From positions 1 through 13,314 of the forward strand of contig CAZPWM010000087.1 of the NCBI GenBank assembly GCA_964590575.1: a stretch of 13,314 nucleotides of DNA. Reading direction: 5' to 3'. This DNA is from an uncultured archaeon. Its GTDB lineage: Archaea; Asgardarchaeota; Thorarchaeia; Thorarchaeales; Thorarchaeaceae. Position numbers and translations under genes: made by a program. Shown here one piece after another: positions 2-13,313 of the stretch (position 1 is the stretch's first letter; the number at the start of each line of letters is the position of its first letter). Below the pieces are notes generated by a model. That model saw only the letters and a list, made by a program, of their open reading frames with translations, was not told the origin of the DNA and did no database searches.

Positions 2-2248
2 CAGAAGTTCAAGGGCATTTCTCACTCGTTCCTCCTTCCAACTCAACCCCACAACTGCGTCCTCAATACTAAGTTGCCCATCCTTAGTAGCTGCAAGACT
101 CAATATTTCTTGGGGATCATCAGTGAGAGCAACAGGCACAAACTCCACAAGAAGGGCGCCACCTTCTATTGTAGAGAGACCTTGGATCAAGCCCTCCTTG
201 GTCATATCTTCAATGATATTCTCAATCTCTTTAGCGTGCGTGCCCCAACCAGATTTATCCAGTCTTACAAGGAGTTCTGCAAAAAGCATAATTCCACCAA
301 ACTTCTTGGATTCTTCAGCCATTCTTAGGATATCGCGTCTTAGTCCATCAGTCCGGTCATCTCTCTTAAGGAGCCGTTTGACCATTCCAGATTTCTTCTT
401 AGCTTCAGTTATCCACGATTCAGGTTCGTATCCTAATTCAACAAGCAACTCAACAAGTGCGGTCCGATATGCAGGGATGCTCAGGAGGGTACTTCCCTGA
501 GTTTCGAATGCGGTCCACAATCGCTCACGAATCATATCAAGGCGTCGAGACCGATCAACTAGTTCATCCAACCTAGCCGCAAGTTGTTCCTCGTGTGATA
601 ATGAATTCAACATTATTGGAATCGCTACATCGCTTGCAGAGGTGATTGTAAATTCAACGGATTTATCGATATATCCAGCTGCTCGAACAAGTCCTTCATA
701 TCTGCTCATAGGAATCGACACAACTATTGCGCCTTTGGAATCTGATTTTGCAAAAATAGCTCCAAGATTTAGGTCAGCTCCTACAACTGGTCGGCCAGCT
801 TCATTTTGTATGTGAAACCTCACGCGACATAGAGAGCCATCAACAATGAGAGGAGTAATTTGACGCTTCAATCGTTTTTTGATTTTCGCTTCAGGGATTC
901 CAGAAATGATGCTCTTTAGTTCATCAACAAGAGGAGCTTTCACCAAACCATCGCCCATCAGTGAGTTAGCACCCTCAGATATGAGGTCTCGAGACTGTTT
1001 GACAGCGAGCAAATTAAAATTCTCAGAGGATTCACGAATGAACTTTCTCAGTGCAACATCATTGTTTGCTCTCTCACTCAACAATGAAGTGAGGGCATCT
1101 AGAGCCCGTGACGGACTTATGAATCTATCAACAAAGTCACGCCGGCGGCTTACCTTCTCCCCATTAGTGATTAGTTGAGAGATTGGATATATTTCAATTT
1201 GCAGTTGTCCTTTCTTAGAGAAACCAGCAAGGAAAAAGGGTAGTAGAATTAGAGCTCCTTTATCATCCACATTCTCTGTAGATATTGGGACTGATGTATC
1301 AAGAATTAGAGTAAGTTGATCATGAATTGTTTTTGTTGCAGCTTGGAATTCAGCATTCAGATTGTCTTGCTCGACAAGAAGGTCTCGCGAAGTTCCTTGG
1401 ATAGTGGATCGAATATCGTTTCTTCTAGTTTCATCCCGCTCCAGTGCAACTTTGCGCGCAGATAATGTCTTCTTGATTTCATTCATTCGAATCTGTTTAG
1501 TGTCAGAGGAAGATGCTGCAATTTTAGTTAGTTCAGATTCAAGATTTTCAATTTGCTGTTGTAACGATTCAATCCGTAGTTCCAATCTATGAAGAACTGG
1601 TGCTGACTCGGCCTCATTCTTTTCTACAGTTGACTCAACCTTAGCTGCAATGAGCTCAATAAGTTGTGTCATTTTTTCTTCAAAAGAGCTCAATGCCGAT
1701 GCAGTTTCTTGGATGATATCAATTGAATTCTTGAATTCTGCCTGTTTCAAAAGACCAGAGAGAATAATCTCATAATCCTCAATCTGATTACGAAGAGGTC
1801 TTTCAAGAACTTGAGCAATACCTCGGGCCATGAGACCGCTCATCAGGCCTAGCAATGTGGACCGCTCAGTGATTCTTAATGATGCTACTAAACTACGTGC
1901 TGCTTTGACGCATTTCAACAGGGTGTTGAAATCCCGACTGGACTCAAGTGCCTCAATAGTCGATTCTGTATTGATTCTTCTATGACTTATCATTGTTTCA
2001 CTCGTCAGACCGAGTAGTTCAACTAGATAGCTTCTATTGGGAAACGGAGACTCAGCGATGGCCACTGGCAAATAGCATTTCAAAATAAATTCGAGTTCAC
2101 GACCGTCCCGTTGTTCTATGGCTCTTAGAACCATACCTGCTACAACATAATCTTCTGGTATAGCTTGCTCCATTGGTTGACCGCCTGCTAACTGGAGGCG
2201 CCTCGTAGCAGTGGAGGGTACAATGAGATTCCAGCGGTCTAGGTCCAT
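2..2248 (-). CDS. Large multidomain protein (>=749 aa, 3' end runs off the window): N-terminal domain with inserted coiled coil, carboxypeptidase-regulatory/PEGA-like beta-sandwich, C-terminal EAP30 (Vps22/Vps36, ESCRT-II)-like winged-helix domain
   Basis: Translated by hand; missing from the ORF track because its stop is outside the window. Starts MDLDRWNLIVPS at ATG 2248 (in-frame ATGs also at 2260, 2272, 2287). Heptad region LELRIESLQQQIENLESELTKI lies within ~1350-1700. VRFHIQNEAGRPVVGADLNL...KSDSKG...YEGLVRAAGY (~600-830) fits the carboxypeptidase-regulatory-like pattern. C-terminal GGIMLFAELLVRL...IENIIEDMTKEGLI...FVPVALTDDPQEILSLAATKDGQLSIEDAVVGLSWKEERVRNALELL resembles Vps22/Snf8 (GGLI.L.EL...SVP.EL..D...VL.LA...G.VTV..I...L.W..ERA...LE.L). 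Confidence 0.85.
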   Translation of the reverse strand, partial: MDLDRWNLIVPSTATRRLQLAGGQPMEQAIPEDYVVAGMVLRAIEQRDGRELEFILKCYLPVAIAESPFPNRSYLVELLGLTSETMISHRRINTESTIEALESSRDFNTLLKCVKAARSLVASLRITERSTLLGLMSGLMARGIAQVLERPLRNQIEDYEIILSGLLKQAEFKNSIDIIQETASALSSFEEKMTQLIELIAAKVESTVEKNEAESAPVLHRLELRIESLQQQIENLESELTKIAASSSDTKQIRMNEIKKTLSARKVALERDETRRNDIRSTIQGTSRDLLVEQDNLNAEFQAATKTIHDQLTLILDTSVPISTENVDDKGALILLPFFLAGFSKKGQLQIEIYPISQLITNGEKVSRRRDFVDRFISPSRALDALTSLLSERANNDVALRKFIRESSENFNLLAVKQSRDLISEGANSLMGDGLVKAPLVDELKSIISGIPEAKIKKRLKRQITPLIVDGSLCRVRFHIQNEAGRPVVGADLNLGAIFAKSDSKGAIVVSIPMSRYEGLVRAAGYIDKSVEFTITSASDVAIPIMLNSLSHEEQLAARLDELVDRSRRLDMIRERLWTAFETQGSTLLSIPAYRTALVELLVELGYEPESWITEAKKKSGMVKRLLKRDDRTDGLRRDILRMAEESKKFGGIMLFAELLVRLDKSGWGTHAKEIENIIEDMTKEGLIQGLSTIEGGALLVEFVPVALTDDPQEILSLAATKDGQLSIEDAVVGLSWKEERVRNALELL

Positions 2249-2354
2249 CGTGATTCCCATTGTTGAAGTCATGGGAATGCTTTTCATACTTTCTTTTGCA
2301 TAGACAAATACAGTTACGAACGCGCTTCTTCTAAGACTGAAGACTTCATGGAGC

Positions 2355-2774
2355 ATGAAAATGAAAAGAGAAGATCCTTTTCTACTCCCAATGTGTAATC
2401 ATTGTGGAAAATACAAAGGCATTGGGTCTTGTAACAATCCAGTATGCCCAGAGTTTCAACGACAATTAGATAAAGGAGATTCCGTGATGGAAGATGATAG
2501 TTTGAACAATTCAGTGAATCAGTCATGTAGCATCTGTAAGAAGGAGCAGGTTATAGCTTGTAAACAATGTGGACAGGGATTTTGTAAGACGCATAGCGCA
2601 GGGTCCGAATCGAAACAGCTTGTGTCTTTTCATCAACATATTGGGACTTGTGTTGAATGTCAGGAAGTCGTCTGCGAAAATTGTTGGATACTGAATCCTA
2701 ATGGAGATATTATTTGTCTGATTCATGTTGAAAGAGAACGAAAAAATAAAGAATTTCACGAAAAACATCTTTAG
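2355..2774 (+). CDS. Cys/His-rich multi-zinc-finger protein (B-box/AN1-like modules)
   Basis: 139-aa ORF with CNHC...CNNPVC, CSIC...CKQC...FCKTH and CVEC...VCENC...ICLIH. Divergent from the large gene. The start could be 2355 or 2361. Confidence 0.75.
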   Translation: MKMKREDPFLLPMCNHCGKYKGIGSCNNPVCPEFQRQLDKGDSVMEDDSLNNSVNQSCSICKKEQVIACKQCGQGFCKTHSAGSESKQLVSFHQHIGTCVECQEVVCENCWILNPNGDIICLIHVERERKNKEFHEKHL

Positions 2775-2791
2775 GCATTACATGAGAGTCA

Positions 2792-2801
2792 AACATTTAT
2801 G
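2792..2801 (+). promoter_or_regulatory. Possible BRE/TATA element for the 2834-4791 gene pair
   Basis: AACA-TTTATG about 33 nt upstream of ATG 2834, in a 59-nt intergenic gap. Confidence 0.3.
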
Positions 2802-2833
2802 CGAAGCTATACCCCCGTAAACTGGGACGGCAT

Positions 2834-3943
2834 ATGCCAGAAGCGACATTTGTGGTAAAGCTTGATGATTTTCAGGGGTTCATTGTCGAACAACGATACC
2901 CCGCAACACTGACACTCAATGAGAAGATTCTGAACCTTATCTTCTACGAACAGCAGAGAGAGAGTAAAGAAAATCTCAGTCTAGCAGAAATAGAAGGTTT
3001 GAGAATTGCAATCTTTAGTTCCCCACAATATCCAAAGTGGATGGTTTGCACTATTCTCGGAGCAGAAGAAGAGTTCGATAGTGTCACTGAAGGACTCTCT
3101 GGGTCAGGAAGACTCATTCTTGCACTGATGAGCGAAGATGCAGAATCAATAAATCTCGAAGAGATAGTCAAAGCAGGAAGTATTCTTGAGAAGACCAGCG
3201 AGGAACAGAAACTTGCTGAGATATTTCTTACTCCGTCTTCAGCACTCCTTCTCGAACGAATGCAATCCGAAGGAGTGGAGAAAGCCGCTAAGCTCTCAAT
3301 CTGGCTAAAGAATCAAGTTCAAGATGAAGTGGATCTTCGTGAAGCAATGGCACCTCTGATGAGTACAGGAGTTGTTGCTGTGGAACTAGTTGGAAAAACA
3401 GCAGAGATGGTATTTCTTGTGAAGGATATCTTTGGTTATCGTGCACCTCCTGTTGAATCAATTAAGCGAGCCTCTCAGACAGTACCAGGCATTGCTGGAA
3501 AATACAAGGAGTATGTAGCATCCTTTTTCTCTCCTCCACCCCCGAGTAAGGGGTACAATCCGACCATAATTGTCAATGATCCCAATTCGCCAATTCTCGA
3601 GGACAGAGAGAAAATTTCAGTCCTCCTTGCGGATAGTTTGAACTATATGGTACTCGACTCTTTACGAGCTGAACCACTTTCAGCATCAGAGATTTCATTG
3701 AAGACAGCCCTTCCGGAGCCTATTGTGGAGAAGGTGCTTTGGTCACTGGAATCTGAAAAGGTAGTTGTTCACTTTGAGGAAGAGGGACTCTGGGCTCTTC
3801 TAACGAACCCCAGAATTGAGTCATTCATCCCTGAATATATATTACCGGTGATAAGGAAAAAGGTAACAGAGAAAGAAATAACATCTCAAGTTGCACGGAG
3901 ACACCTTGAACTCTTGATTCAGAATTACGGTGAACCAGAATGA
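2834..3943 (+). CDS. Hypothetical protein: N-terminal uDENN/longin-like domain plus two predicted winged-helix domains
   Basis: 369-aa ORF. N-terminal FVVKLDDFQGFIVEQRYP follows the strand-(F/L)D-x3-G-strand-YP start of uDENN/NPR2-type longins. LLLERMQSEG..AAKLSIWL...LREAMAPLMSTGVVAV and MVLDSLRAEPLSASEISLKTALPEPIVEKVLWSLESEKVV are HTH/wHTH patterns. Its stop overlaps the next start (ATGA 3940-3943). Confidence 0.8.
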   Translation: MPEATFVVKLDDFQGFIVEQRYPATLTLNEKILNLIFYEQQRESKENLSLAEIEGLRIAIFSSPQYPKWMVCTILGAEEEFDSVTEGLSGSGRLILALMSEDAESINLEEIVKAGSILEKTSEEQKLAEIFLTPSSALLLERMQSEGVEKAAKLSIWLKNQVQDEVDLREAMAPLMSTGVVAVELVGKTAEMVFLVKDIFGYRAPPVESIKRASQTVPGIAGKYKEYVASFFSPPPPSKGYNPTIIVNDPNSPILEDREKISVLLADSLNYMVLDSLRAEPLSASEISLKTALPEPIVEKVLWSLESEKVVVHFEEEGLWALLTNPRIESFIPEYILPVIRKKVTEKEITSQVARRHLELLIQNYGEPE

Positions 3944-4791
3944 TCAGAAGCGTCTATGTGCTTGGTGAACAGGGGAATATGCTCTACTCCAAGGATTATG
4001 CCAAAAGTGAGTCCAAAGCAGACCTTATTGAGTTTCTAGTGAATCTTACAAACTTCTTGAGAACTGTAGATCTTGAAAATAAAACGGAGTTCATGAATGT
4101 AGCGGTTTCGCGTATCTTCTTCGCACAAAGGAGCATTTTCACTTTCATGTTTATTGCAGATAAGGCAGATGATGCTTCTCAAATAGAGGAGAAGATGGGG
4201 CAGCTCGTTGACTCTTTTATGCGAGATTATGCTAATCTAGCTGCTGCCAATCAGCCGCTGGATGGTTTTGACGAGAAAGTGGATGAGATTGCAGTCACAA
4301 TGGTCAAGGTAGCTATCTTAGGATTTGCTGGTGTGGGAAAAACTACAACACTTCATTTACTCCGAGGAGAAACTCTTCCACTAGTTCATGACCCCACGAT
4401 TGGTGTGTCAATCAAGAAGCTACCAGAGGAAGTAGAGAATGCAAATATCGTCCTTTGGGACCTGGCGGGGCAATCTCGGTTTAGCATACTTTGGGCGAAA
4501 ATGATAGCAAATGCCCAAGTTGTAATTATTGTCACTGACAGTACTCTGGAGAATGTTCTGAGGAGTAAGAAACTGGTGACACTTGTGAAGGATGAGGTTC
4601 CTGATGCGAAAGTGATTGGCATAGCTAACAAGCAGGATCTTCCCACAGCTTTGACGCCAGAAAGAGTGGGCCAGATATTAGGAATTCCAACCTATGAACT
4701 CGTAGCCATTGACATCTCATACAGAGATAGACTCATTTCTATTATTCGAAGAGCCATACTTGAAGGCAAAGCTGAAGCAAAAGCAGCCTAA
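3940..4791 (+). CDS. Longin-domain / Arf-like small GTPase fusion
   Basis: G1 GFAGVGKTT, G2 PTIG, G3 WDLAGQ, G4 ANKQD, degenerate G5 (LVA); the G domain starts at ~4300. PTIG, WDxxGQ, the switch-2 Trp (ILW) and ANKQDLP are Arf-family hallmarks. The first ~120 aa (MIRSVYVLGEQGNMLYSKDY...) show the longin pattern of sigma-adaptin/SRX/TRAPP-type domains. Confidence 0.92.
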   Translation: MIRSVYVLGEQGNMLYSKDYAKSESKADLIEFLVNLTNFLRTVDLENKTEFMNVAVSRIFFAQRSIFTFMFIADKADDASQIEEKMGQLVDSFMRDYANLAAANQPLDGFDEKVDEIAVTMVKVAILGFAGVGKTTTLHLLRGETLPLVHDPTIGVSIKKLPEEVENANIVLWDLAGQSRFSILWAKMIANAQVVIIVTDSTLENVLRSKKLVTLVKDEVPDAKVIGIANKQDLPTALTPERVGQILGIPTYELVAIDISYRDRLISIIRRAILEGKAEAKAA

Positions 4792-4814
4792 ACCCTCAAG
4801 AAAAAGTGATACAG

Positions 4815-4846
4815 TGCCTTGAATCAGGTCTATATGCATCAAGGCA
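4815..4846. repeat. 8-bp perfect inverted repeat with 16-nt spacer (hairpin or protein-binding site)
   Basis: TGCCTTGA (4815-4822) and TCAAGGCA (4839-4846) lie between the GTPase stop and the next gene, directly upstream of a TATA-like AAGGTTAAG. Confidence 0.45.
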
Positions 4847-4902
4847 AAGGTTAAGAGTCAAACAAGACGAGGTAACGAATAATAGGCCCATAGGTGACTA
4901 TC

Positions 4903-5466
4903 ATGTCCTTTGATTTAGAAGGTATTATGGCAAAACTCAAGGAAATTGAAGGCTTCGCAGACAATGTTGCGGAGACCAAGAGGCTAGCTGATAACTTGGC
5001 TGAGAATTTCGCTAAGATGAAGATGTCCATTAATCAAACCATAAATGACAGCTTCACCGAGATAGCAAATCAGATCGACACACTGCGTAAAAACATGGAA
5101 AAGATGGAGAACGTCAAAACAGAAGCCCCAAAAGTTGACGCTCCGGCTCCGGCTCCAATTCCTAAACCGGCGCCCGCGCCGGAGGTTATTCCTACCCCTG
5201 AGCCAGTTCCAGAACCCCTGACTGAGCCAGTGTTTGAAAAACCAGAGCCTGAACCAACTCCTGCTACTGTCGATGTTGCTGCAGCTGAGGGAAGCGACCA
5301 ATTGGATTTCCTGCTCCAGCAAAAAGACAGACTGAAAGCTCAGTTGACAGACTTACGTTTTGATTATATGAGGGGATACATACCCGAAGATGAGTACAAA
5401 ACAAAAGAGTCAGAGCTCGACACCCAGCTGGAAGATGTTGACAAGCAGATTTCCGCTCTGAAGTAG
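4903..5466 (+). CDS. Hypothetical protein: N-terminal coiled coil, Pro/Glu-rich linker, C-terminal SHOCT/CdvA-like helical hairpin
   Basis: The ORF track starts at GTG 4894, but GGTGA (4893-4897) is a well-placed archaeal SD for ATG 4903. PAPAPIPKPAPAPEVIPTPEPVPEP linker; C-terminal LRFDYMRGYIPEDEYKTKESEL fits the L-x3-Y-x2-G-x-I-x-EEEY hairpin pattern. Confidence 0.8.
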   Translation: MSFDLEGIMAKLKEIEGFADNVAETKRLADNLAENFAKMKMSINQTINDSFTEIANQIDTLRKNMEKMENVKTEAPKVDAPAPAPIPKPAPAPEVIPTPEPVPEPLTEPVFEKPEPEPTPATVDVAAAEGSDQLDFLLQQKDRLKAQLTDLRFDYMRGYIPEDEYKTKESELDTQLEDVDKQISALK

Positions 5467-5634: not shown

Positions 5635-6549
5635 CTATTTTTTCTTCGTAGTTTTCTTGGGAGCTGCCTTCTCTTTTTCTTTTTTCGTTGCGGCTTTCTT
5701 AGGAACTGGTTTCTTTTCAGCTTCCTTCTTAGCAGCTTTCTTTGGAGCTGGCTTCTTTTCAGCTTCCTTCTTAGCAGCCTTCTTTGGAGCTGATTTCTCT
5801 TCAGCTTTCTTCGTTACAGCTTTCTTAGGAGCTTCCTTCGTCTCAGCTTCCTTTTTAGTGGCTTTTTTGGGAGTTGCTTTCTCATCAACTTTCTTCGTTG
5901 CAGCTTTCTTGGGAGCTTCCTTCTCGTCAGTTTTCTTCTTCGTAGCCTTCTTGGGAGCTGCTTTTTCTACAATCTTCTTTGCGGGCTTTTGCTTAGGAGC
6001 TGCCTTCTTCTTTGGTATTCGCTCCTCAATATCTTCGACTGGTTCGCGTTTAGGCACTACGATTTCCAACGGTTCTACGATGACCTCTGGTCTGAGATCC
6101 TTGCGTTCCTTCTTCTCGCCAGCTTCCCTTCGTTGTCGGGCAAGTTTGCTAGGCTTCACCACATCACTTGATGCTGCAGCAAGTGCAAGATCCATCTCCT
6201 CGGTGATTACAGGTTCCTTGGGAACGCTTGATGCTATCTCTTCAAGGGCATCAGCAACCATTATTGGAGCTCCACCTTCTCTCTTAGCTAATTCAGAGGG
6301 TGTAGTGTAAACTACAAAACCGCCTTCTCGTATGTAGGGGACAACAATCCCCTCAATCTCTTTCTCTCTCAGAATCTTACGGGCAACACTCATCCGAATA
6401 TTGAACCGATTGGCTAAATCATAGCATGTGATGGACTTTGCTTTCTTGAGATATTCATCGATTCCTGATTTAACATCAGGCTTGGGTATTGCATCTCTGA
6501 TGACTCTCTCGGTCTTTGTGGCTGACTTGCCCCACTTCTTACGGCTGAT
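5635..6549 (-). CDS. rps25e: Small-subunit ribosomal protein eS25 (S25e) with long Lys/Ala-rich C-terminal extension; probable non-canonical ATC start
   Basis: The frame of track ORF 5635..6393 stays open for 52 more codons: ISRKKWGKSATKTERVIRDAIPKPDVKSGIDEYLKKAKSITCYDLANRFNIRMSVARKILREKEIEGIVVPYIREGGFVVYT. This matches eS25 motifs (KKW.K; K.IT...L..R..I..S.AR..L.EL...G.I......IYT). SD AGGAGAG is 8 nt before ATC 6549. An in-frame TAA lies at 6574-6576, with no in-frame ATG/GTG/TTG between it and 6393. Confidence 0.85.
   Translation of the reverse strand: MSRKKWGKSATKTERVIRDAIPKPDVKSGIDEYLKKAKSITCYDLANRFNIRMSVARKILREKEIEGIVVPYIREGGFVVYTTPSELAKREGGAPIMVADALEEIASSVPKEPVITEEMDLALAAASSDVVKPSKLARQRREAGEKKERKDLRPEVIVEPLEIVVPKREPVEDIEERIPKKKAAPKQKPAKKIVEKAAPKKATKKKTDEKEAPKKAATKKVDEKATPKKATKKEAETKEAPKKAVTKKAEEKSAPKKAAKKEAEKKPAPKKAAKKEAEKKPVPKKAATKKEKEKAAPKKTTKKK
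5638..5967 (-). repeat. About 8 degenerate tandem copies of a 42-nt (14-aa) unit, consensus near EKxAPKKAxKKxxE, inside the eS25 gene
   Basis: EKAAPKKATKKKTD / EKEAPKKAATKKVD / EKATPKKATKKEAE / TKEAPKKAVTKKAE / EKSAPKKAAKKEAE / KKPAPKKAAKKEAE / KKPVPKKAATKKEK / EKAAPKKTTKKK. Confidence 0.9.
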
Positions 6550-6664: not shown

Positions 6665-7327
6665 TTGGCTGAGATCCCGAATCTTTCTACATTGGTGGAG
6701 GTCATTATTTCATCAGCATATCCTGAATTTCAACAATCCAATGTAATCATGTCATGGGGAAAGACATCAAGTTTTGCTCAGATTCAATGGGATGAATCAA
6801 GAGAAGAGATTTCAATAAGAGTCAATCATACTGTGAAAACGTGGCATGAATCTGGGATAACGGGATTAATCTCACATGAACTAAGTCACCCTGCACAGAG
6901 AGGGTCAGGGCTAAATGAAATGAAAACCGATAACGATGCAATATCTCGAGGGTTGGGGCCCTATCTAGCCGTTGAAAGATTGTTTGCAGGAAAGTACGAA
7001 GACCATTTGATACAGCGGGGAAGAGATAGGTATCTAGGATATAGATCAATAAGAGCACAACTGACTAGTATAGAAAGTCAGCATTTAGATACACTTCTCT
7101 CAGAACTTGGTCTTGTTCCAAAAAAAGTACCGAGTCCAATCTTGATGAGTCATGATATCGTTGTGTTTGATAAAGAGAGCAAAACCACTCTAACTATTGA
7201 GGGTCATCAATTCGTGTTACCTCAGAACGTTCAGAATCCGGATATCAAACTGATAGAACGCGATTACGTCACATATGTATACGCCAATGATGTCTTCTTG
7301 GGACAATTTACCAGGGGAGAAACCTAG
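6665..7327 (+). CDS. Putative zincin-like (HEXXH) metalloprotein, function unknown
   Basis: 220-aa ORF with TTG start and upstream GGAGA. ISHELSHP is followed by NEMKTDNDA, a possible third-ligand Glu helix as in M48/M56/M78-type zincins. The C-terminal part is beta-rich. Confidence 0.7.
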   Translation: MAEIPNLSTLVEVIISSAYPEFQQSNVIMSWGKTSSFAQIQWDESREEISIRVNHTVKTWHESGITGLISHELSHPAQRGSGLNEMKTDNDAISRGLGPYLAVERLFAGKYEDHLIQRGRDRYLGYRSIRAQLTSIESQHLDTLLSELGLVPKKVPSPILMSHDIVVFDKESKTTLTIEGHQFVLPQNVQNPDIKLIERDYVTYVYANDVFLGQFTRGET

Positions 7328-11934: not shown

Positions 11935-12171
11935 ATGGCGTTGTCAATGGAGTTATGGAAACGTTATATAATATTGAGCATGTTTAGTGCGACAATTATC
12001 TCAATTTTGACGATCTATCTCTATTTCTCATTTGGTATACTAGACATACTAGGAATGAAGCTTGTTACAGTGATGGTTTGTGTGTTTGTTATCTTCCTCT
12101 TCATCTTTCTAGCATCCTATGCTTGGACAAACAGGGATAGGCACCCCTTCAATGTGAGTTACTCAACCTAA
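11935..12171 (+). CDS. Small putative membrane protein (two TM helices)
   Basis: 78-aa ORF with two hydrophobic segments; its stop overlaps the stop of the convergent gene by 4 nt; AT-rich. Confidence 0.5.
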   Translation: MALSMELWKRYIILSMFSATIISILTIYLYFSFGILDILGMKLVTVMVCVFVIFLFIFLASYAWTNRDRHPFNVSYST

Positions 12172-13313
12172 GGATTGTAAGCAAAGGGATGCCTCGCAGA
12201 GTCCTTCCTCGCAATGATCTCATTAACACCTTGACGACCCTCTATGGCTCGCCGTAGTGCATGACGCACAGCTATGAAGTTGTTGATGTGCACCCTTGTT
12301 GTGTTGACCGCACTTGGATGTACAAAGACATTCACTGCAACGACTAGGTCTTGTACTAATTCTTCAGGAATGATTGCATCTGTGATGCTTCGTCGAATTG
12401 CATCAGATACTCCTTTCTGGGCAAATTCATACACCATCTTCTTATGGTGCTCCGAAGTGATAGTAACAGTCGGGGCAAAGACCGTTTTCAACTCAAGATC
12501 CTTGATTACATTCGACTGATGCGTGTCCTCTGTGACTTTTCCTGCATTCTCAAGAGCCACACTCATGGGACCATCGCGTATACCCATTATCAAGTCGACA
12601 TGTGCGACATCGTTGCCACCACCGAATAGTGCTTCGCCATGGAGTAAGGTCAGGTCCTTAATGACATCAGGGACCATTCCTACAGCCTTAGGATAGGTCT
12701 CACTTTCTATAGATCTATTACCCATCTTGAAAACGACTGGACCTCTTGGAATCATCTGAAGATCCTCAAGACAAATGCGTATCTCGTCATGCATATCGTA
12801 TCCAAGAGAATCAGCCTCCAGAAGCGGGGGTCTCGCGTGCCCAACGGGCACACCTATCATATTGAGCGCGGCTTTGACAGCAAGCCCGCCCCCACGATTA
12901 ACGAAAATACGGACTATCCTCTGAATACTTCGTTGCACAATCAAAGCTTCCTTCAAGTCACCACTAGCAAGAGCTGTTTGCATCTTGATATAACGATCAG
13001 GAAATACATTGGCACTGGCAAGAATTGCACCATCACAGCCAGTTGCGAGTGCAGGAAGTACTACTTCATCATGGCCAACTACCACTTGGAAATTCTCGGG
13101 ACGCCGGACTAAAATTGTGGTCAGATTCACAAGATCGCCACTTGAATCCTTCAATCCAACAATGCCATCGATATCTCTCAGTCCATCTATGAGTGTCCAA
13201 TGTAAAGGAACACCAGTAACTTGAGGGATATTGTAGACGAATATGGGAATGTCACTATTACTAGCTACTTTCTCGAAATGCTCGTAGATTTCCTTATCGG
13301 AAGGTTTCAAGAA
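12168..13313 (-). CDS. dapA: DapA/NAL-family class I aldolase fused to a C-terminal formaldehyde-activating enzyme (Fae) domain; 5' end outside the window
   Basis: The frame is open to the window edge. The aldolase part (~12760-13313) has VYNIP (catalytic Tyr), GLKDSSGD (Schiff-base Lys), GHDE, GCDGAILASANV and VKAALNMIG..VG.ARPPL. The C-terminal ~160 aa (~12168-12655), HGEALFGGGNDVAHVDLIMG...AQKGVSDAI...IIPEE...VFVHP...ALRRAIEG...ARHPF, follow Fae (GEAL.G.GNEVAHIDL.IG...AQ.GVA.AV...IIP...VFIH...HPF). Confidence 0.9.
   Translation of the reverse strand, partial: FLKPSDKEIYEHFEKVASNSDIPIFVYNIPQVTGVPLHWTLIDGLRDIDGIVGLKDSSGDLVNLTTILVRRPENFQVVVGHDEVVLPALATGCDGAILASANVFPDRYIKMQTALASGDLKEALIVQRSIQRIVRIFVNRGGGLAVKAALNMIGVPVGHARPPLLEADSLGYDMHDEIRICLEDLQMIPRGPVVFKMGNRSIESETYPKAVGMVPDVIKDLTLLHGEALFGGGNDVAHVDLIMGIRDGPMSVALENAGKVTEDTHQSNVIKDLELKTVFAPTVTITSEHHKKMVYEFAQKGVSDAIRRSITDAIIPEELVQDLVVAVNVFVHPSAVNTTRVHINNFIAVRHALRRAIEGRQGVNEIIARKDSARHPFAYNP

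Follow-up and report, generated by a model that had tools for sequence, protein, structure and literature searches.

Do the five contiguous genes at the left end of a Thorarchaeaceae contig, each with patterns of eukaryotic endomembrane machinery, make up one system, or do they stand side by side for other reasons? The genes occupy positions 2 to 5,466 of contig CAZPWM010000087.1 (assembly GCA_964590575.1, from an uncultured Asgard archaeon whose genome is 3.4 Mb and 91% complete), and the window analysed here is this entire contig, C87, at its full length of 13,314 nucleotides (13.3 kb). An earlier note on the same DNA described a membrane-trafficking and signalling locus in which a GTPase switch is linked to a scaffold like that of ESCRT-II (ESCRT, endosomal sorting complex required for transport). 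We lean towards an operon encoding a GTPase, P0004, and its cognate regulator, P0003; the Vps22-like scaffold P0001 would be tied to this operon more loosely, in a lineage-specific way. This keeps the part of the proposal that concerns the GTPase and its longin partner, a module conserved beyond this genome, and loosens the part that concerns P0001, whose link is tenuous: the protein is Thor-only, has been cleanly lost in six genomes and sits in a region that is collinear as a whole. The locus is real and moderately interesting, with known families in a conserved pairing and a Vps22 architecture that looks undescribed.

Five open reading frames (ORFs), P0001 on the minus strand and P0002 to P0005 on the plus strand, fill 2-5466, and together with the starts of the P0001 orthologues they confirm the places that the note had assigned to the genes:

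2-2356, minus strand: ORF of P0001, which exits the contig at its left end; start at 2248 according to orthologues
2-2248, minus strand: P0001 gene, a Vps22/EAP30 paralogue of 777 amino acids (aa), of whose codons the window contains 749 and contig C114 the final 28
2249-2354: divergent intergenic region between P0001 and P0002, delimited by the gene starts
2355-2774, plus strand: P0002, a 139-aa Cys/His-rich zinc protein (ORF and translation)
2834-3943, plus strand: P0003, 369 aa, a longin domain, two winged helices (WH1 and WH2) and C-terminal helices (ORF and AlphaFold2, or AF2, model)
3940-4791, plus strand: P0004, a predicted longin domain and an Arf-like GTPase domain (ORF; 4-nt overlap with P0003)
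4903-5466, plus strand: P0005, a 187-aa coiled-coil protein (the ORF opens with GTG at 4894; orthologues begin at the ATG at 4903)

In orthologues of P0001 the first residue corresponds to M37, encoded at 2248, and 777 aa is the length of its nearest homologues, so the divergent intergenic region is 2249-2354, as the note had it. The upstream ATGs at 2287 and 2356, considered as starts of P0001, found no support from orthologues.

Relatives were sought by profile searches of 400 Asgard genomes grouped in families, among which f1 is the Thor family and f2 its sister family. The GTPase of the locus, P0004, has two parts:

3940-4293, plus strand: N-terminal longin domain, residues 1-118, predicted by profile similarity
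4300-4791, plus strand: Arf-like GTPase domain with intact G motifs

It is the sole protein of the locus in the window that Pfam recognises (Arf, 69.6 bits against a cut-off of 22.3), and its best solved relative is Arf1 (E 1.5e-15). The motifs GxxGVGKT, PT, WDxAGQ and NKQD do not vary among 27 orthologues and relatives, identity is 68-95% among the 18 f1 orthologues aligned, and the mean distance of 0.26 lies below those of two housekeeping neighbours, which means that P0004 is more conserved than they are. Ahead of the GTPase domain, the profile of residues 1-118 matches AP-2 sigma in the PDB (E 9.7e-5, residues 1-103) and the MON1 longin (E 3e-3), followed by AP mu/sigma, VAMP7 and zeta-COP, and two Pfam families match below threshold, Clat_adaptor_s in 19 and Fuz_longin_1 in 9 of 27 members; a protein atlas search with the N-terminus gave no usable match. 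Judged by these profiles, the N-terminal 118 residues are a longin domain. They occupy the N-terminus, where an Arf-type amphipathic helix was sought and none was seen, nor any hydrophobic or lipid-anchor motif. The description of P0004 as a longin-Arf GTPase therefore holds, on the Pfam Arf match, the invariant G motifs and the longin profile matches.

The neighbouring P0003 combines a longin domain with winged helices:

2834-3148, plus strand: longin domain, residues 1-105
3200-3826, plus strand: tandem winged helices, WH1 at residues 123-204 and WH2 at residues 254-331

Its AF2 model (pLDDT 85, pTM 0.81) has a longin of the order beta-beta-alpha-beta-beta-beta-alpha, followed by the two winged helices and C-terminal helices. 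In a Foldseek search of the PDB, ranks 1-11 are NPRL2/NPRL3 chains of GATOR1/SEAC (E 4.7e-4 to 7e-3), with a TM of only 0.21-0.23. VIA-align superposes only the longin part, residues 1-116, giving Z scores of 10.7-11.1 with NPRL2 (9o5d_D at the top, 11.1), 10.8 with the Loki longin 8yqg, 8.6-9.4 with sedlin, VAMP7, Lst4 and DENND1A, and 8-9.4 with other longins overall. No Pfam family passes. The note's label of a uDENN/longin-WH protein is right as to the longin and the winged helices and wrong as to uDENN, the fold being a generic longin with no DENN. P0003 was considered as a DENN protein and rejected: residues 123-331 are two winged helices, and DENND1A/B match only residues 1-116 (Z 8.6-9.0).

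Sixteen sequences of the P0003 family share the longin motif [W/L/F]-D-x3-G ... [Y/H/F]-P, in which D11, G15 and P23 are invariant, and the winged-helix invariants E124, W157, L158, D198, R203, P205, D257 and R278. No arginine in the longin is invariant across the 16 members, the arginine finger of the NPRL2/FLCN/SMCR8 type being absent, and the residue after G15 is F, A, T, V or L, so that there is no GP motif. The family was found in 274 of the 400 Asgard genomes (83 of 85 in f1), often with several paralogues, and comprises 180 representative clusters.

In eukaryotes, NPRL2-NPRL3 (yeast Npr2-Npr3) are the longin subunits of GATOR1/SEACIT, the GTPase-activating protein (GAP) for RagA/Gtr1, while C9orf72-SMCR8 (CSW complex) is a longin-DENN GAP for Arf GTPases. 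P0003 resembles the former in its N-terminal longin followed by winged-helix domains, in the Foldseek ranking, in the top VIA-align score of the NPRL2 longin, and in being encoded beside a small GTPase that has its own longin domain. However, it lacks the arginine finger, the proline after the conserved glycine and any sequence-level NPRL match, and its partner is Arf-like with an N-terminal longin rather than a Rag with a C-terminal roadblock domain. The likeness to C9orf72 lies in the (W/L/F)D-x3-G motif at the loop between strands 1 and 2, which has the spacing of W33-D34...G38-P39, residues reported in the text of PMC12290439 as essential or conserved. It also lies in the client GTPase, which is of the Arf type. 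In contrast to C9orf72-SMCR8, P0003 has no DENN domain, the residue after the glycine is not proline, P0003 of the window has Leu in place of Trp, and no SMCR8-like partner with an arginine finger was identified.

The case for a cognate pair begins with gene order. P0003, P0004 and P0005 are collinear in all 20 fetched f1 loci. Of the whole locus, only the P0003-like/P0004-like pair turns up beyond the Thor order, where at least four other Asgard families have it. Adjacency was counted by hand in genomes where both best matches have listed coordinates (f16 is labelled Freyarchaeia, f18 Helarchaeota and f22 Lokiarchaeota; f14, f15 and f29 carry no such label):

f16 (Freyarchaeia): pair adjacent in 5 of 5
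f15: pair adjacent in 3 of 3
f18 (Helarchaeota): pair adjacent in 2 of 2
f14: pair adjacent in 3 of 4
f22 (Lokiarchaeota): pair on one contig, 0.9-6.2 kb apart, in 17 of 20
f29: 0 of 4, the best matches being far apart or on different contigs

In each of the three f22 loci fetched (L065, L068 and L071), the GTPase gene has a second P0003-like gene directly against it. The genome of the window has a second, diverged pair on contig C4 (L083 7834-8973 and 9289-11289), where a 379-aa P0003 paralogue (27% identity) is followed by a 666-aa protein that carries long extensions and an Arf-like domain 39% identical to P0004. A pattern-based search for related loci returned 52 loci, all in Thor records, the derived patterns being too specific. 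The synteny across Asgard classes that the earlier note had asked about is present for the P0003/P0004 pair, in several families, and limited to the Thor order for P0001.

Genes, folds, motifs, synteny and distribution are what we observe, and it is from them that we infer every interaction and activity that follows. The first unit of the locus would be the operon (P0002)-P0003-P0004-P0005, in which the cognate pair P0003/P0004 is the core, P0002 an optional member and P0005 a Thor-specific one. The longin domains of P0003 and P0004 may pair with each other as in NPRL2-NPRL3, FLCN-FNIP and C9orf72-SMCR8, and the paired platform would dock on the GTPase domain of P0004 and set or read its nucleotide state. 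P0003 is more likely a non-catalytic or co-catalytic partner, or a guanine nucleotide exchange factor (GEF) or effector, than a GAP subunit of the NPRL2 type, because it keeps the C9orf72-type (W/L)D-x3-G motif and has no arginine finger. The winged helices of P0003 and the coiled-coil P0005 would carry the output.

The divergently encoded P0001 is the second unit to be placed. Its AF2 model (pLDDT 80, pTM 0.57) has five parts, an N-terminal alpha/beta domain, a coiled-coil hairpin, a second alpha/beta-helical region, a transthyretin (TTR)-like sandwich, and a helix with two winged helices, of which four were delimited:

2-595, minus strand: C-terminal Vps22-like module (long helix, helical region, WH1, WH2), model residues 552-749
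611-832, minus strand: TTR-like/CarboxypepD_reg beta-sandwich, model residues 473-546
1295-1744, minus strand: 150-residue antiparallel coiled-coil hairpin, AF2 helices 169-244 and 251-318
1769-2248, minus strand: N-terminal alpha/beta domain, model residues 1-160

The EAP30/Vps22-like C-terminus that the note had seen is borne out. P0001 matches human SNF8 (2zme_A) with an E of 3.9e-5 in phmmer, and its family profile finds SNF8 in the PDB with an E of 1.1e-9 over SNF8 residues 7-215 and yeast Vps22 with an E of 1.4e-3; the last 215 or so residues align with nearly the whole SNF8 core of helix, WH1 and WH2. Against the EAP30 gene of the genome's own ESCRT locus, the profile gives an E of 1.3e-23 and the pairwise comparison 37% identity over 109 aa (E 3e-13). 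This module is also the best conserved part of the protein (conservation 0.73-0.78, against 0.41-0.59 elsewhere). The Pfam family PF04157 is not among the matches of the window's P0001 at E values up to 1, and the genome-wide PF04157 search misses P0001; several homologues 45-47% identical to it carry a precomputed PF04157 match.

The sandwich of P0001 aligns with the TTR domain of carboxypeptidase D (5aq0_B; VIA-align Z 13.0, rmsd 1.4, 78 aligned); such domains are the top Foldseek matches, and PF13620 is precomputed on some homologues. The hairpin is the least conserved part and matches only generic helical hairpins in structure. In fold searches with the whole model, the matches are taken up by the sandwich and the coiled coil. 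The N-terminal domain has no sequence match in the PDB or Pfam, and hhalign found no significant similarity between it and the longin domains of P0003 and P0004; the hhalign set as a whole (P0001 N-terminal domain, P0001 middle, P0003 longin, P0004 longin, and P0001 C-terminus against P0003 winged helices) gave nothing significant (E 0.047-0.51).

The canonical ESCRT set of the genome (Snf7, Vps4, Vps25 and EAP30) sits elsewhere, on contig C13, which makes P0001 an extra paralogue. A third, weak EAP30 match, on contig C9, proved to be the C-terminal winged helix of MCM and was rejected. The N-terminal domain of P0001 was found in 77 of the 400 genomes, namely in 74 of 85 in f1, 1 of 1 in f2 and 1 of 19 in f14 (a weak match), with 0 in the other families. 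On its sequence relationships, P0001 is a Vps22/EAP30 paralogue confined to the Thor order. It is like Vps22 (SNF8/EAP30) in that its C-terminus spans nearly the whole helix, WH1 and WH2 core, and unlike it in being about three times longer, through the N-terminal alpha/beta domain, the coiled-coil hairpin and the TTR-like sandwich, in being encoded away from Vps25, ESCRT-III and Vps4, and in its restriction to one Asgard order.

The last codons of P0001 lie on another contig. Bases 1-55 of the window are identical to the end of contig C114 (9162-9216), the continuation on C114 adds 28 codons and ends in ...YWFPGLRGGKK*, as in full-length orthologues, the P0001 family profile matches the C114 end (E 3.9e-25), and the genes on the C114 side (YdjM-like, GluRS, hydantoinase B/A) stand on the same side in relatives. 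For these reasons contigs C87 and C114 can be joined.

Is P0001 then tied to the operon? In the fetched f1 loci it is present in 18 of 20 (directly adjacent in 17, 4.9 kb off in one), and P0002 is present in 11 of 20. In 64 of the 67 f1 genomes that list both P0001 and P0003, across about 14 genera, the two genes stand next to each other in divergent orientation, with less than 1 kb between them; in the other three they are 4.9 kb apart (one genome) or on different fragment contigs (two). In f2 the locus has been rearranged, and P0004 (58% identical), P0005, the neighbour N7, P0002 and P0001 all lie within 6.5 kb. The near-universal adjacency in f1 and the clustering kept after the f2 rearrangement make the tie plausible. 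The residual evolutionary rates of P0001, P0003, P0004 and P0005 correlate with one another at 0.37-0.77 (15 taxa), P0001 with P0004 and P0005 at about 0.6; the correlations of these four proteins with two housekeeping genes are -0.37 to 0.40.

Several observations weigh against the reading we prefer, beginning with those that bear on this tie. Six f1 genomes, 95-99% complete, keep the operon without P0001, and in the two loci inspected the loss is clean, with the C114-type flank abutting the operon directly. The whole 13-kb region is collinear in f1, housekeeping genes included, so the adjacency in f1 is weak evidence and could be inherited gene order. The two housekeeping controls correlate mutually at only 0.43, which is noisy, and since the taxa are also kin, the rate covariation is only a hint. 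The clean losses and the collinearity suit an explanation in which two unrelated units have become neighbours: the GTPase operon would act alone, and P0001 would be an accessory ESCRT-II paralogue working with the canonical ESCRT or with something else, beside the operon through inherited order. Such an account would also fit the limitation of P0001 to f1, f2 and the one weak f14 match while the P0003/P0004 pair is much wider, the rate of P0001, the fastest protein (mean distance 1.26 against 0.26 for P0004, about five times), and the conserved element that P0001 has upstream of it. It sits less well with f2, where P0003 has moved off and P0001 and P0002 nevertheless stay within 6.5 kb of P0004/P0005, with the adjacency in 64 of 67 genomes of about 14 genera and, weakly, with the rate correlation of about 0.6. 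We give this explanation real weight, though short of thinking it probable. In the reading towards which we lean, P0001 forms a second unit, whose divergent transcription would start from the conserved promoter-like element; it probably serves as a scaffold in the same pathway in most Thorarchaeia and is, given the six clean losses, not an obligatory part of the switch.

Other observations bear on the pair. The likeness of the P0003 longin to NPRL2 is tied with that to other longins (Z 10.7-11.1 against 10.8 for the Loki longin), and neither phmmer nor the profile search of the PDB returned an NPRL chain. No GTPase gene stands next to the P0003-like gene in 10 of the 20 fetched loci outside f1, family f29 has no adjacent pair, and the best P0003-like gene of f2 is on another contig than P0004 (0 of 1), beside an NTP-transferase gene. 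None of 23 long family members fuses the P0003 module to a GTPase. The family has several paralogues per genome and fusion partners that include surface-type, TPR and SIR2 proteins, which implies that not all members need serve a GTPase. A weak hint in favour of the preferred reading comes from metatranscriptome contigs at least 99% identical to the window, which lie inside P0003 and P0004 (X19) and P0005 (X20), but they are of read length, bridge no genes and may be DNA carry-over; window parts without X19/X20 contigs carry no information on silence.

A further point of this kind is that WH2 of P0003 is most like the DNA-binding winged helices of ArsR/SmtB repressors (VIA-align Z 8-9, 16-23% identity). 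P0003 might accordingly be read as a transcription regulator that binds DNA through two winged helix-turn-helix domains while its longin senses the GTPase, which would make the locus a GTPase-controlled gene switch and not trafficking machinery. Some database records do call family members 'predicted transcriptional regulator' or 'ArsR family', and the adjacent intergenic region holds a conserved DNA element:

2280-2294, minus strand: 15-nt conserved element AGAAAGKRTGAAAAG, located 32-46 nt ahead of the start codon of P0001

All 8 intergenic regions aligned, from Thor relatives, have the core of AGAAAGKRTGAAAAG unchanged between variable flanks, and the element is non-coding in L038 and L039, which have in-frame stops. 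It is a candidate promoter (B recognition element (BRE)/TATA-like) or regulatory site. The genome has one exact copy, the one ahead of P0001, and hence shows no regulon; copies with one mismatch number five, against three for a reversed control. The database names are automatic, and the winged helices of NPRL2/3 and ESCRT-II bind protein, not DNA. We regard a DNA-binding P0003 as improbable and keep to P0003 as the partner of P0004. A sigma-70 promoter scan, a model unsuited to archaea, gave 7 sites against 5.9 expected, with 0 intrinsic terminators.

The last gene of the operon encodes P0005, in which a variable Pro/Glu/Ala-rich linker connects the N-terminal coiled coil to the invariant C-terminal motif LTDLRFDYMRGYIPE.EYK. 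It was found in f1 (20 of 20 loci) and in f2. Of 18 orthologues, 16 give sub-threshold matches to the CdvA-like coiled-coil family PF18822 (best E 1.7e-7), and 17 give such matches to GvpG; P0005 of the window fails PF18822 (18.8 bits against a cut-off of 30). Coiled-coil profile matches are error-prone, and the likeness to CdvA is a lead only. The 'coiled-coil adaptor' of the earlier note is thus a coiled coil, and 'adaptor' is unsupported. The linker varies widely in length, the orthologues having 178-227 aa, and a related population (run X5) carries a 12-nt insertion at 5250 in the Pro/Glu-rich part.

P0005 enters an explanation by which all five proteins form one machine. A GTPase switch would gate an ESCRT-II-like scaffold for membrane remodelling, P0001 would pair with P0003 as Vps22 does with Vps36/Vps25, and the CdvA-like P0005 would act as recruiter. 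P0001 does keep the whole Vps22 core, including the N-terminal helix, which mediates pairing in ESCRT-II according to the text of PMC10936438. P0003 has two winged helices, and ESCRT-II chains are among its weak Foldseek matches (E 0.07-0.1); the 16 sub-threshold CdvA-like matches among 18 P0005 orthologues and the synteny in f1 and f2 would fit as well. However, hhalign finds no significant similarity between the P0001 C-terminus and the P0003 winged helices (E 0.1), the P0005 of the window is below the cut-off of an error-prone profile, and many genera do without P0002, as six genomes do without P0001. No gene for Vps25, ESCRT-III or Vps4 stands in the left flank on C114 or in the right flank; the left edge, where the earlier note had suggested looking for them, has none beyond it, and those genes are on contig C13. 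Nor was a membrane-binding element seen in any of the five proteins: there is no transmembrane-like segment, amphipathic N-helix or lipid-anchor motif, and the term 'membrane trafficking' finds no support.

We find a single five-protein machine hard to credit. Somewhat less probable still is its most specific form, an Arf-like GTPase switch physically wired to an ESCRT-II-type scaffold in Thorarchaeia, with P0003 bridging P0004 to the winged helices of P0001 and P0005, through its CdvA-like C-terminal motif, recruiting downstream partners. If true, GTPase-gated assembly of winged-helix scaffolds would have a precedent in archaea, and proteins of the NPRL2/3 and ESCRT-II types, built of a longin or helix and tandem winged helices, might share a root.

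The earlier note had not recognised the locus as a described system, which goes too far for its families: the text of Liu et al. 2020 (preprint 10.1101/2020.10.19.343400) reports an NPRL2-like family in most Thor metagenome-assembled genomes as well as longin-fused GTPases, and states that most genes for eukaryotic signature proteins lie outside conserved neighbourhoods. Longin-GTPase architectures are also given in the text of Tran et al. 2024 (PMC10933270), where the Loki strain MK-D1 is described as having no GTPase/regulator operons. P0004 shares its longin-GTPase architecture with the longin- or roadblock-fused Rag/Arf-like GTPases of Asgard archaea in these two sources, and differs from them in the conserved presence, across several Asgard families, of a longin-protein gene next to its own. 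Asgard longins with a GP motif or arginine finger are described in the text of PMC12290439, which asks which Asgard GTPases they partner, and Asgard ESCRT-II variants are surveyed in that of PMC10936438. Neither the gene pair of NPRL2-like protein and longin-GTPase nor the long Vps22 paralogue was found in passages of these four papers or in full-text searches of the literature; figures and supplements (Liu Fig. 5c and asCOG tables; PMC10936438 Fig. 6B and Tables S2-S3) lay outside that scope and may show them. The P0003 and P0004 families are known, their conserved pairing appears not to be in print, and the long P0001 architecture of Vps22 looks undescribed.

What the pair offers is a way into a general difficulty. 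Asgard genomes encode dozens of small GTPases and of longin and roadblock proteins, and there is almost no way to match a regulator to its GTPase, a gap stated explicitly for MK-D1 in the text of Tran et al. 2024 (PMC10933270). This locus provides a matched GTPase/regulator pair whose genes are neighbours in several Asgard classes and whose GTPase is strongly constrained, with D11, G15 and R203 of P0003 and Q178 of P0004 as candidate residues for mutation. If P0003 binds P0004 and alters GTP hydrolysis or exchange, the origin of longin GAP/GEF platforms (GATOR1, folliculin, C9orf72-SMCR8) would become testable in archaea. P0001 also makes one ask whether scaffolds of the ESCRT-II type had found new uses beyond the ESCRT pathway by the time eukaryotes arose.

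Members of the P0003 family also occur in larger proteins. In P0168, P0182 and P0236 the P0003-type module is C-terminal in giant proteins of 1,600-2,500 aa with Laminin_G_3/ConA-like and CarboxypepD_reg domains, and other fusions are to TPR and SIR2_2. One genome of family f21 (G138:C1:1857696-1874781) has three equally scoring P0003-like genes about 8 kb apart on one contig, which suggests a recent tandem repeat of the region.

P0002, the optional member of the operon and the Zn-finger of the note, has a Cys/His pattern that is conserved in the 11 orthologues from 20 f1 loci. An N-terminal ribbon (CxxC...C-x4-C) is followed by a B-box/AN1-like cross-brace at the C-terminus. The Pfam families C5HCH, ANCHR-like B-box and zf-AN1 match it below threshold (E 1e-3 to 4e-3), and it passes no Pfam zinc-finger model (best 17.5-19.4 bits against cut-offs of 26-28). 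In the genera that lack P0002, the gaps between P0001 and P0003 are 140-390 nt, too short to hold it.

No housekeeping gene is found among the five, as the earlier note observed, and such genes stand close by on both sides. The left flank, on C114, holds YdjM-like, GluRS, hydantoinase and phosphatase genes, and the right flank two unknown genes followed by NTP-transferase, AlaX, M20 peptidase and a DHDPS-Fae ORF. Three ORFs of the right flank have features of their own. The 252-aa ORF at 5635-6393 (minus strand), a neighbour conserved in f1, has a conserved N-terminal domain of about 60 residues and then a Lys/Ala/Pro-rich repeat tail (KKAAPKK-like), to which the strong AT skew of the stretch is due. 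The ORF at 12168-13313 (minus strand) leaves the contig end as a single frame that joins a DHDPS-family domain to a formaldehyde-activating enzyme (Fae) domain. The 220-aa ORF at 6665-7327 (plus strand) contains the HExxH-type motif HELSH and belongs to no Pfam family. In f1 it neighbours the operon, and in the rearranged locus of f2 (L138 8845-9549) P0005 and P0002 stand on either side of it, so it may be a member of the cluster.

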